The notes under the pieces were generated by a model. It worked only from the letters and a program-made list of their open reading frames with translations, was not told where the DNA came from and did no database searches. Position numbers and translations under genes: made by a program. A DNA stretch of 64,000 nucleotides from positions 24,924,001 through 24,988,000 of the forward strand of contig CM022665.1 of assembly GCA_012295275.1 (NCBI GenBank), given 5' to 3'. Positions 53,573 to 59,500 of this stretch are shown one piece after another (position 1 is the first letter of the stretch; the number at the start of each line of letters is the position of its first letter). This DNA is from Chrysomallon squamiferum. Lineage: Eukaryota; Animalia; Mollusca.

Positions 53573-56500
53573 CTGAAAAGCAGAGAGAAGACGTTATTAT
53601 TTAACACTTGTGTTTACTTAGATACAAGAGCACATCAGTCGGATGTCTTATTATTTTACCAAAGGCCGTGTTATGTGCCTTATCGTCTATGGGAAGGTAC
53701 ATATTAGTTTCTTCTAAGCGACTAATAGATAAATGTAGACAACTGAAAGGCTGCTGCGGGTTTACTATCATTTTTTGGATAATGCTCTATGAATACAGTA
53801 AGAAGCTTACGATATTAAGAAAAATGAGTAAATTAGAAAATGATATGGATTTTGCGCATGTAGCTCTGGGCTGCCTATTAAAAGATTAAATTTTGCATCC
53901 TTGTACTAATATTTATCATCTGATACGTTACCTGGATATGACCTGTCACGTGATCTTTGTGTAGGGTAAGGTCTTCGTGTAACAAAATCCACTCTTTTGG
54001 GGTTTTCTCTTCCATTGACAAACTGTGGCGGATATTGAGTAAGGAACAGCTGGTGATTGTAACGTCTTGTTGTTAGTGTTGATGCTGTTGTAGGTGGTGG
54101 GGCTGTTCGCTTATAAGCCGCATAGTCTGAAAATTAAATTTGCCAAATATAGATTTTTATCGTTAGCAGTTCAATCCATTAATTTGTTTGCATAATTACC
54201 ATTGTTTGACACCTCAAGACTGAAGTCTTTATATTGTGTGATGGGCTGTCGATCAGCGAAAAAAAAAAAAAAAAAATGGATTTGTAGATTTCTAATGTAT
54301 ATAACGTATTTGATTATATAAGTTTGTGCTTGTTTCTGAAGAACATTCATTTTGGCTGCTGTGCAATATTTATTATAGACAAACTGATAAGATAGAATGA
54401 AATGAAAGACGAGATAAAAATATGAAAAATAAACGAAAAGAGACAATAAGAAAAGAAAAATGAAATTTTGAAAAATATCATTTTAATTCTATTGAATTTT
54501 AATTACCGTAAAGTATCATGGTTTCAGAATCTTGTCCAAGAAGATTTGAAGCGACACAAGTGTATTCACCAAAATCTTTTTCCTCTAAGTTTCGTATTCT
54601 TAAGCTTAACGTGATTGTATGGTCTTCTTCGTTATATATTTCTACTCTGTATTTCACGCTGTTTATTATCTCCACGCCATTCCGCTTCCAAACGCTGATT
54701 TCTTGAGGATAGGCGCTGATAATACATTCAAGAATTGTCTCCCTTCCTATTTCTTGACCTATACGTTTTGTTGGTAGCCGGACTTCTGGAATGACTGAAA
54801 TTAGACATCACTTTACATCAAAATCATCATCGTCATCATGAATATGGTCATTCATTCATTCATTCATTATTATTATTATAATTGTTGTTGTTGTTGTTGC
54901 TGTTGCTGTTGCAATTGTCGTTGCATAACAATCCACAGCATCAACAAAAATAATAATAAAAATAAATAATATAATACCCTTCTCTAAAACGAATGAGATA
55001 TACGCCTACTTAAATATCAGCATTTACAGTTTCAAAAACATTATCTTAAGTATGCTCATTTTCTTCCTTTCTTTTTTTATTTGTTTATTTGTTTATTTAC
55101 AGTTGTTTACTTGTTTGTTAACCATTATCTTCTCATAGCCTTTGAACTTTTAATTTTATAGAAGACTGGCCTATCTTTTTATAAATAGTAAATTATTTTA
55201 ATTTACATTCCACGGAAACTTTAATTTTTCTGTTCACTGGTGGAGGGACGCCGTTGAACGCAACACATTCGTAGACGTCGCTACAGTAGCGGCTGACGTT
55301 GTGAATAATGAGGACTTCGCCGCTCATTCCGATTCCTGTAACAAGTAAATAAAGAAATAAAATCACAAAATAGAATTAGAATTAGCGGTCATATTTTATC
55401 TGCAAAGAAAATGACGAAACCAGTTAGAACATTAATCTGTAATAATAATTTATTAAATGAAATTATTAAGTAATAGTCAAACCATGAATATTTTCTAAAT
55501 AGTATTATTACGTTATGTATTTTAAAATAATAATAATAATAATAATAATAATAATAATAATAAAAAAACAGTATTTTCTCAAGTATGTTTCTCAAAGCTA
55601 TGGTTTGCTTCTAACAGTCTCAGTGACTGAAAAGACCAACTGTTCTCAAAATGTAATCCACGGTTCCCTACGTATCCACGGCACCTTTTTTATGGGAAAC
55701 CAAATTAAATATAAAATAAAAATTATGAGTTGTAATTTCTAATACAGATAATTCTAAAAAAAAAAATATAGGTATATAGATATATAAAATTAATAAATAT
55801 ACTAGATAAACAACAGCTGTTTGGCATTGATGATAAGTTTTAGGAGTGTAAAGAGGTCACAGAATCTGAGAACCGCTGGCACCAATCTTTCTATAGTCCC
55901 CAGAGTAGAGATAAAGGGCAGTTTAATACAGTTTGACGTGTACAATGTAATACAGCAAATTTAAATATGTTCTGTAATGAAAATAATAAACTTATCAGAG
56001 TAAATACAAATACCACAACTACGACCATGGTCACCAAAATGACAAGAGCTCAAATAAATACAAAAGGTTTCATTACAATATTATGAGGAGCACAAATATC
56101 TTCACGTATTTCACATGCTCATTATAAATATAAATGCGTGAGAGCATGAAATCGCACTCTCACACAGAATACAGTCACATAAACATATATATATATATAT
56201 ATATATATATATATATATATATATTCATTTACAGAGACAGACGTATATATATTTTTTTCATATTCGTTCACATACTCATGCATAAATACATAAACACACA
56301 TACACACACACAAACACACACACACATACACACGCACACATTCATTCATACACATGCCTAAACAGTAATAAACATATAGAATCTGAGCATGAAAACATGT
56401 ATATAGATAAACATATCTATAAATGCATAAATGCACGCGAACACACACACACTCCCACACCTCCCCATAACGCAAAGTAATTTTGTGGCATATATCTGTT

Positions 56501-59500
56501 AACACCCGAAACCCTTGTAGTGGAGTTAAAACTGAGATGACGATGTGAGTGTTGTAAATTAATGACAGCTCATCACAGTTATTTTCTTACTTTCATGAAG
56601 TCCAAGTAGCATGAAAGTTTAACGTTCAAATTAATGTTTATAATTATGACACCAGGACACAGTGTGAGCATATTTTTTTTTTTTCTTCCAATGATCGTTT
56701 TATATTGTTATTATGAAACATTATACCATCTTGAAACTTATTTCTATCATAATCCTAGTAGACATTTTTGTCGTTAAATACAATATTCAATATTCAGTTC
56801 TGTTTTTCCGCTTACTTAACACTCAAGGATGAGTTCCTGATTTTAACATTTGACCCATGCTGTCTATAATGTTCAAAGCAGTGTATGCATGCATGCATGT
56901 ATGTATGTATGTATGTATGTATGTGTGTATGTGTGTATGTGTGTTTATGTATGTATGTATGTATGTATGTATGTATGTATATGGTGCAGATATTTGGTTG
57001 TTACTGCTCTCAACTGTTTGCTATCTATTACGACACGCTATATTTATGTTTTGTACAGGAAAGGAAGACTCAGCGCCGACGCATTTGCATTTAAATGGAA
57101 CCAGTGAAAGAAAGTGTCAGCGTGCAGTTTCTAATTTTGTTTGTTCGTTCGTTCGTTTATTTATTTATTTATTTATTTATTATTTTTATTTTTATTTTTA
57201 TTCATTCATTCATTCATTCATTTATTCATATATCGATTTATTCATTGAAACGTTGGTGCAGTAAAATCACTTAATAGATGAATATCAAACATCAGATAAT
57301 AGGAAATCAACTGGTGGTTGGGTTTTTAATGTTTTTGTTATTTTATTTTATTTTATTTTATAATTTTCATATTATTATTATTATTTTATTTATTTATTTA
57401 TTTTATTTATGCGTGTGTGTGTTTGTGTTTGTGTGTGTGTGTGTGTGTGTGTGTGTGTGTGTGTGTGTGTGTGTGTGTGTGTGTGTGTGTGTGATAAATG
57501 AAGATTAATGGTGAATTACAAGCATTTCTGGTACTTTAGCATGGACATACATATATAATATACTTACCAGTGCAACTATATTGGAGTGAAAACCTACACA
57601 TAAATCTATTCATTATTTATATTGCTCCTAACCCAATAAAAACAAATAAATTAATAAGTAAAACATTTTCATTTCGGTAAAATGATGCTTAGTAAACGTG
57701 TAAATGAAACAGATACTTTATAAAAGAAGTGAAATTGATGTAGAATTAAAGAATTGTCAAACCTTTTTCGTGTAATTATTTGTATATTAATATATATATA
57801 TATATATATAGGTATAGGTATATGATGATATGTGTATGTATGCATTTTCTCACGTATCATGTTTGCATTTAACGGTATAAAATTTATTTGTAGCGTATTT
57901 AGTGTAATTTGGTATTTTTAGATTAGTTCTTCAATTTGTGAATTTAAAAATATTAGCAACATAACCTCCACGTACAGGAATGCACATACCACATCATTTC
58001 ATCTCATAATAATCATGGGTCATAGTCTCTCAATCTGAGATCTAACAAGTAATCTTGAATCAGACCTGAAAACAAGTTGCTAAAGCACAAACCGCCGTGC
58101 ATAATCTGTTTAAAAAACCACTGATAATGTTGTAGTCGTTCCCTGGCCAAGGCTGCCCATCGTAAGTGAGTGTGTGCGATAACCGTGCAAACTCAAAACA
58201 AAGTCTTACTATTAGTGCCAGGGCAGAACTCACTCTCTTTCTCCTCCTCGTCCGACCCGTCACCGCTTCGCCTGTACCACGTGACTGTTGGCATGGGGAT
58301 TCCAGTGACGTTACAGACGAGGGTTACCGTATCATATTCACGTGCTACCACTTCGTCAGACGACAGGCTGGGAATTATCGTTGCCGGAACTGGAATAACA
58401 ATAATAATAATAATAATTAAAAGAAGAAGAAGATAATGATGATTAAAAGGAATGACATTAACTATACTCTATCAAGGAATTTTAATTAGACTGAATTACA
58501 AACTGACAAAATCATAATTATGTAGTTCATGTAATGACTAAAACGTTTTGACTATCAAAAACATTACTTTTATTATTACAACTTCTACTGTCTATAGCTT
58601 ATATTACTAGAATATATGTTAATTCTCATAACTACTATTACTATTACTACTACTGCTACTACTGTTATTACTACTACAGGTACCGGACGAATTATCCGGT
58701 GTCCTGAAATCCGGAAAGACCAGAAAACCGGAAGTTTTTTCCCGACGCTATTTTCATAGTTCGCGCACGCGGTTGCTGTCCTTGCTAGACCGGAACTACT
58801 CTTTCAAGACGCGTGGCGTTCATTCACTCGCCGCTATGTTTACGTGTCGAGTCGCCACAGTTGTGTATCGTCCAGTTTCTTTATGTTTTTAATTTTAAAA
58901 TGTTTATGCCTAATTATTTACGTATTTAGATGCCTTGGTACTAGAATGCCTCAGGCCCCAAGGAGTCCGGATAATTGGTCCGGTACCTGTACTACTATTA
59001 CTAATATTACTACTATTACTACAACAACAACTACTACTACAACTATTATTATTCCTACTACTACTACTACTACTACTACTACTACTACTACTACTACTAC
59101 TATTATTACTATTATTATTATTATTATTATTATTATTGTTATTATTATTACCATTTTTACTGATTTAGTATTATTAAAGGATTACTACATAATAAAATAT
59201 CTCTCGATTACAAAATCAACAATCATATTGAACTTAATAATGTTTTGCCTTAATGGCACCAATCCAAGATATTTAAAACTATTTTTGAATCTCACCTTGA
59301 ACTTTGAGATTAACGGTTTTAATCTTGACAGGACTTGTGTTCACTTGACAGTTATAAATTCCTTCATCTTTGTGTTTCACTTTTCTGATGTGAAGATTCC
59401 AGTCTTTCGTGTATGGACGCTCGATGCTTAGACGTTCATCGTCGATTATTCTGCGATCCTCGAAAGTGAGTAGCGTTGACCACTGGTCAGTCCATACAAC

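Follow-up and report, generated by a model that had tools for sequence, protein, structure and literature searches.

Tandem splice donors and an extra cysteine in the second Ig domain of a molluscan DIP-type adhesion protein: a candidate splice-controlled disulfide

Can the choice between two neighbouring splice donors decide whether a cysteine of an adhesion protein has a partner within its own domain? The question is raised by a gene on the minus strand of a 64,000-nucleotide (nt) stretch of Chrysomallon squamiferum contig CM022665.1 (positions 24,924,001 to 24,988,000 of the forward strand; hereafter the window), which encodes a gastropod adhesion protein of the DIP/IgLON (Wirin) type with three immunoglobulin (Ig) domains, Ig1 to Ig3. 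Ig2 has an extra cysteine in its E-F turn, and the preceding exon has two donors, the second of which adds eight residues, one of them a further cysteine. We lean slightly towards a mechanism in which the tandem donors produce Ig2 with or without this one-cysteine insert, and in which the added cysteine bonds to the E-F cysteine of that domain, which would otherwise be unpaired. Neuronal wiring is set by DIPs and IgLONs, whose known specificity resides in Ig1; a conserved splice option on the cysteine parity of Ig2 would add a layer of control in a family with a molluscan expansion. Aplysia gene models include the option, and in that animal expression, splicing and synapse formation can be assayed.

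Tandem donors and the exons of the gene

The exon that begins Ig2 ends in two consensus donors exactly 24 nt apart, as the first-pass annotation had recorded: GAGA/GTGAGT, with its GT at 58233, and AATA/GTAAGA, with its GT at 58209, both in phase 1 and both facing the acceptor TTACAG/GA at 55336/55335. The same annotation read the 24-nt extension correctly as an open, in-frame segment encoding SEFCPGTN, with a single cysteine. The junction codon is Arg in the short and long forms alike (KE-R-IG in the short form). Exons joined by coordinates yield 398 (short) or 406 (long) residues, counted from the Ig1 exon; the predicted mature ectodomain holds 7 cysteines in the short form versus 8 in the long form, and the hydrophobic tail holds one more. 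When 20,000 random stretches of the window were placed behind a GTGAGT donor, an open in-frame GTRAG followed within 45 nt in 0.9% of them, and in 0.3% a cysteine was encoded as well.

The coding features, all on the minus strand, are as follows.

62314..62423, minus: exon for the first part of Ig1 (AIALEPSF...LGQHQ); tblastn with homologues, splice sites, joined frame
59296..59500, minus: exon for the second part of Ig1; tblastn, splice sites, joined frame, Pfam V-set match
58234..58389, minus: first Ig2 exon, constitutive part up to donor 1 (strands A to C and most of C′); tblastn, splice sites, joined frame
58228..58233, minus: donor 1, GTGAGT (short form); from the sequence
58210..58233, minus: optional 24-nt extension, SEFCPGTN with one cysteine; open frame, same peptide in Patella, Haliotis, Aplysia and other long isoforms
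58204..58209, minus: donor 2, GTAAGA (long form); from the sequence, and a likely paralog contig that matches over 58203-58240
55336..58209, minus: intron splitting Ig2; donor and acceptor sites
55207..55335, minus: second Ig2 exon with the extra E-F cysteine; tblastn, splice sites, joined frame
54507..54794, minus: Ig3 exon; tblastn, splice sites, Pfam I-set and Ig_3
53932..54126, minus: Thr/Pro-rich stalk exon with no cysteine; tblastn, splice sites, joined frame
53457..53572, minus: last coding exon, hydrophobic tail (end coordinate approximate); splice sites, joined frame

The likely paralog is a second contig in sequencing run X1 (847 nt, depth 46, like that of the window's own sequence), identical to 58203-58240 at 36 of 38 nt across both donors and divergent on both sides; its upstream loose end resembles, by eye, the loop of Gigantopelta P0084. 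It is likely to derive from the same organism and to keep both donor regions. No exon joint at either donor was found in the contigs of four runs (X1-X4), which is evidence in neither direction, X1 being DNA-like and covering introns. Judged from annotated relatives, both donors of the window gene are very probably used.

A second good-looking acceptor (TTTCTTTGCAG) stands at 55400-55401, 65 nt upstream of the used one; its use would shift the frame and lead to a stop. At the other end of the protein, relatives possess an N-terminal signal peptide; no convincing candidate for a signal-peptide first exon was found in 62425-64000, and this exon of the window gene probably lies outside the window. 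The hydrophobic C-terminal tail resembles, by eye, a glycosylphosphatidylinositol (GPI) signal.

The E-F cysteine and the optional segment among relatives

The extra cysteine of the second Ig2 exon lies six residues before the F-strand cysteine (position F-6), at the D position of the DxGxYxC motif. It had been described as a replacement of the canonical Asp, a description that suits Ig domains in general (at F-6, Asp occupies 1060 and Cys 4 of the 1357 domains parsed from 94 Ig proteins longer than 700 residues) and does not suit the nearest relatives: DIP-eta, -theta and -alpha have His, Asn and Glu, respectively, and the cysteine is family-wide. It is present in 195 of 203 parsed family proteins (212 fetched, 200-700 residues), a set biased towards it by a first query that contained that cysteine, and in 46 of 53 parsed proteins from a profile search (57 rows up to 700 residues, representatives at 50% identity). 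On these sequence counts, the E-F cysteine is a trait common to most molluscan family members and not special to the window gene. The claim that this third Ig2 cysteine is without a partner in the short form, with its 7 ectodomain cysteines, extends to the family: 76 of 78 short cores with the E-F cysteine have 7 cysteines, leaving it none to pair with inside Ig1-3, versus 8 in all 76 cores with one loop cysteine. Splicing alters ectodomain parity, odd or even, both in the window gene, as read from its exons, and in annotated relatives.

Orthologues with the E-F cysteine had been named as the place to look for a conserved optional segment. When relatives were sorted into 110 gene groups of proteins sharing identical Ig2 flanks, 18 groups varied in length at the Ig2 junction, and in 16 of these 18 the gene models keep a segment at the same site whose presence adds a cysteine: nine gastropod SE-type extensions, six bivalve inserts and one octopus record, for which short counterparts were taken from other records. 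Long and short forms are annotated together in Patella vulgata, P. caerulea, Haliotis rufescens, H. rubra, H. cracherodii (in two paralogues), Bradybaena, Physella and Aplysia (two genes each) and Pomacea; among bivalves, in Mya, Ruditapes, Mercenaria, Pecten, Ostrea and two Saccostrea. RefSeq isoforms are usually backed by RNA-seq.

Twenty-six distinct SE-type extensions were picked by hand. Their S and E are invariant (26/26), as the GTGAGT donor forces, and a cysteine is present in 25 (at position 4 in 24, at position 5 in one), position 4 lying outside the donor motif. Position 3 is conserved as F or L, as is P-G; the residues after the cysteine are kept less well (P 21/26, G 20/26, T 17/26, N 10/26). 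Read-through products in P0315 (an abalone-like Logan contig) and P0089 (Pomacea) have S-K or C-K after the extension, which would fit a GTAAG second donor.

The bivalve inserts occupy the same junction with 18-26 residues that are unlike the gastropod extension and differ between oysters, scallops and clams, yet each has exactly one cysteine, in a C-x-Y motif; a second, cysteine-free bivalve insert occurs, among the isoforms listed, only alongside the first. Protein junctions suggest that these inserts are cassette exons. No such cysteine cassette was found in the Ig2-splitting intron of the window gene, where the one symmetric candidate is a read-out of a GT repeat. Both bivalve-type forms, long and short, are encoded without a break at exon borders in Logan contigs of 1.5-3.7 kb, which suggests that these contigs are transcripts.

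Taken at the level of annotated sequences, the splice option is real, conserved and apparently undescribed, in a known receptor family. Even without a dimer, a donor choice kept in all sampled major gastropod groups, together with one-cysteine inserts in bivalves, points to selection on the thiol.

A candidate bond within Ig2 and the rival readings

The first-pass annotation placed the extension in the C-D loop. Its single cysteine stands, but an AlphaFold model of the short form P0064 (69 short rows) places the junction in strand C′ of a C-C′ hairpin, with residues 181 and 182 on either side of it (strands 164-172 and 178-183; predicted local distance difference test, pLDDT, 86-98). In the model of the long form P0019 (63 mixed rows), whose insert and E-F cysteines are C185 and C207, strand C extends to residue 170 and no strand is predicted over 171-196, with a pLDDT of 65 over 171-190; the difference between the two models may come partly from their alignments. 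In the Ig fold, the C-C′ turn shares one end of the domain with the E-F turn. The residue at F-6, which is partly buried, makes contact with two basic residues, one of them two positions after the Trp and the other at the start of strand D. The junction Arg aligns with the D-start Arg of Robo2, and the insert cysteine lies five residues before this junction Arg. No solved domain with both extra cysteines was found among the best five alignments of each of two PDB searches.

Abalone proteins P0180 and P0313, named hemicentin-1-like, are tandem arrays of DIP-like three-Ig units, two Ig2-type domains of which have both the F-6 cysteine and a loop cysteine; the gene of P0180 and that of the lachesin-like P0063 may be linked. 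By analogy, the paired cysteines of these tandem domains would fit an intradomain bond. Known Ig geometry, the Robo2 alignment and the abalone domains together make such a bond in the long form plausible, if unproven, and we regard its closure as slightly the likelier outcome.

The proposed mechanism begins with what the sequence contains, two donors and an open extension that give 7 or 8 ectodomain cysteines. Both donors, used in relatives according to their annotation, would be used in this species also; the insert is predicted to break strand C′ and to lengthen the loop at the C-terminal end of Ig2; and the longer loop would be pinned by a disulfide to the E-F cysteine. The long form would then be thiol-neutral with a reshaped C-C′ edge, and the short form would be left with one unpaired cysteine. 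Adhesion through Ig1, to judge from the family, would be untouched, and the switch would act on cis partners or on oligomer state. That the short form is also bonded covalently to a copy or a partner, making this a full switch between monomer and covalent dimer, is a tentative extension that we think rather improbable. Similarly speculative is a thiol cap encoded by splicing throughout the phylum in molluscan DIPs, whereby the E-F cysteine would link the short isoform to a second copy or a cis partner, and the optional cysteine, which gastropods would obtain through a tandem donor and bivalves and some cephalopods through cassette exons that differ among them, would close an internal disulfide and free the receptor. 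If that were true, splice choice could be the means by which neurons control how a wiring receptor oligomerises, and the cap would have arisen more than once at a single intron.

Several observations weigh against an intradomain bond under splice control. The isoforms of relatives are gene models. The loop of the long-form model has low confidence and comes from an alignment that mixes long and short rows, and a HMMER alignment to DIP-eta sets the insert cysteine opposite the Ala of ELATG, by which it could lie at the hairpin tip, away from the E-F turn. A strict rule is broken by cysteine-free optional segments (Littorina SEFPPGTD, abalone TMLVTTG), three chiton isoforms have no insert, and inserts in some cephalopod or other records have one or three cysteines (three in P0226 and P0314). 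The link between the F-6 cysteine and the loop cysteine is not significant among the 53 representatives (13/46 versus 0/7, Fisher p 0.17). All 4 F-6 cysteine domains among the 1357 parsed also have a cysteine 8-9 residues after the C-strand Trp, but they amount to two distinct domains in two abalone species and are not independent.

Strict pairing also fails in 59 of the 102 groups with the F-6 cysteine, many paralogues among them, in which no loop cysteine is on record. These same groups favour a reading of opposite polarity, in which the E-F cysteine, being half buried, reacts in neither form and the exposed thiol is that of the optional cysteine, through which the long form dimerises or links a partner. 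The partial burial of F-6 in Ig domains, the predicted flexibility of the insert and the wide variation of bivalve inserts in length and in the distance from cysteine to next exon all accord with it. We consider it unlikely, since it does not account for why an unpaired E-F cysteine is so strongly conserved, since the abalone domains carry both cysteines together, and since the loop cysteine never occurs without the F-6 cysteine (0/8 groups, 0/7 representatives, both small numbers).

Less probable still is a change of shape alone, in which the insert disrupts the C-C′ hairpin and its binding surface and any change in cysteine bonding is immaterial. The short model has a strand C′ that the long model lacks, the F or L at position 3 and the P-G are conserved too, and cysteine-free optional segments exist; furthermore, Ig2 of ZIG-8, the C. 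elegans Dpr orthologue, binds its receptor in cis, according to the accessible text of PMC12881522. That text also describes Ig2 of the DIP orthologue RIG-5 as dispensable for receptor clustering, so that Ig2 acts in cis for one of these proteins and not for the other. Beyond the donor motif, moreover, no gastropod residue is kept as well as the cysteine, and a single cysteine reappears in the otherwise unlike inserts of bivalves.

It is very improbable that only one donor serves in this species, with the second a relic or splicing noise and the isoform pairs elsewhere artefacts of annotation. Predictors can pick either donor, and P0089 reads through both; against this are the same-species pairs in many independently annotated genomes, the conservation of residues beyond the donor motif and of nucleotides in the likely paralog, and the Logan contigs in which both bivalve-type forms cross exon borders. 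About as improbable is the proposal that the two extra cysteines, perhaps with a nearby His, bind metal or take a redox modification in place of a structural disulfide: many relatives have His immediately ahead of the conserved strand-E Asn and following the C-strand WYR, but these residues are not invariant and metal sites of free cysteines are uncommon in the oxidising secretory path.

Family placement, precedents and neighbouring features

The exons of the window match Ig1-3 of homologues at 50-95% (tblastn) and match the Pfam V-set and I-set; relatives P0063 and P0064 show three Ig stretches. Each of the 42 matches in a search with the second Ig2 exon either has Ig domains or aligns with Ig2; the named ones are molluscan and go by LSAMP-like, lachesin-like, OBCAM homolog or hypothetical protein. 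Comparison with solved sequences and folds was run on the relative P0019 rather than on the joined window protein; the closest are Drosophila DIP-eta, -theta and -alpha, followed by other DIPs and IgLONs (best sequence match E 1.8e-56; fold Z 24-25, root-mean-square deviation 2.4-5.0 over 291-305 residues). A quick tree of 65 rows, with no named insect references among them, places the gene within a group of 29 rows, all gastropod (support 98), where its closest neighbours are genes of limpets, abalone and Gigantopelta. Because the tree is without those references, membership of the DIP subfamily is assigned by similarity alone. ESM Atlas gave matches at the family level only, and a scan of metagenomes found no relative.

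WT1 (+/-KTS), KIT (GNNK+/-) and EDA (A1/A2) each gain a few residues through a pair of neighbouring in-frame 5′ splice sites. We know of no short tandem-donor switch of this kind that adds a cysteine pairing with a conserved unpaired one. Neurotrimin, an IgLON with an odd cysteine, reportedly forms covalent homodimers; its cysteine is in Ig1 and is not known to be under splice control, and the literature search gave no text that confirms the report.

The Wirin family groups DIPs, IgLONs and Lachesin, and DIPs are expanded in molluscs, according to the accessible text of PMC6525511. Drosophila DIPs (DIP-eta 6eg0, DIP-theta 6efz, DIP-alpha 6efy) and vertebrate IgLONs share with the window gene three Ig domains and a hydrophobic tail; the DIPs differ in having His, Asn or Glu at F-6 and no extra Ig2 cysteine in the aligned part, and IgLONs are described with three cysteine pairs (PMC5288359, in part). 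Neither of these sources, in the sections available, mentions an optional Ig2 cysteine segment in Wirins or IgLONs. In d16HER2, as the available part of PMC6678616 describes, splicing likewise changes ectodomain cysteine pairing, exposing an unpaired cysteine that yields covalent homodimers; there, however, a receptor kinase loses an exon with two cysteines, giving a tumour-linked product, whereas here one cysteine is added by a tandem donor or a longer insert, across the phylum, and the case is known from sequence. KIR2DL4 also has three cysteines in one Ig domain, with a regulatory role, but its switch is post-translational, through protein disulfide isomerase (PMC13661046, in part), in contrast to the splice choice proposed here, in which the canonical B-F bond would be unchanged. 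The window feature is classed with neither d16HER2 nor KIR2DL4 because neither a dimer nor switching has been seen here.

The available portions of PMC10084454, PMC10606101, PMC8997467 and bioRxiv 10.1101/462036 do not mention the feature, and a literature search, with most subscription journals outside its scope, found nothing on molluscan DIP Ig2 cysteines or on the present splice choice. An extra cysteine pair marked in the Wirin preprint was considered as a precedent and rejected; it is probably the ZIG-8 Ig1 bond of the journal version.

A stalk segment with two cysteines (C-x-G-x4-5-C) occurs in 36 relatives from limpets, abalones, oysters, scallops and clams, P0001, P0014, P0022, P0039, P0096 and P0104 among them. 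Not every isoform of these genes has it (P0019 compared with P0022, for example), which makes it another splice option that involves cysteines; the window holds no match to its exon (best E 0.92). A variant of two residues (KV) at the Ig1 exon border, in Physella P0311 and P0312 versus P0254, is a further short splice choice in the family.

The introns of the window gene contain two repeats. At 55756-55939, in the Ig2 intron, lies a stretch with a summed contig depth of about 9,100 in run X1. In the intron before the Ig2 exon, 58677-58989 is a 313-nt element with perfect 12-nt terminal inverted repeats and TA flanking it on both sides; its summed contig depth in the same run reaches about 60,000, versus about 45 for unique sequence, and it is likely a high-copy miniature inverted-repeat transposable element.

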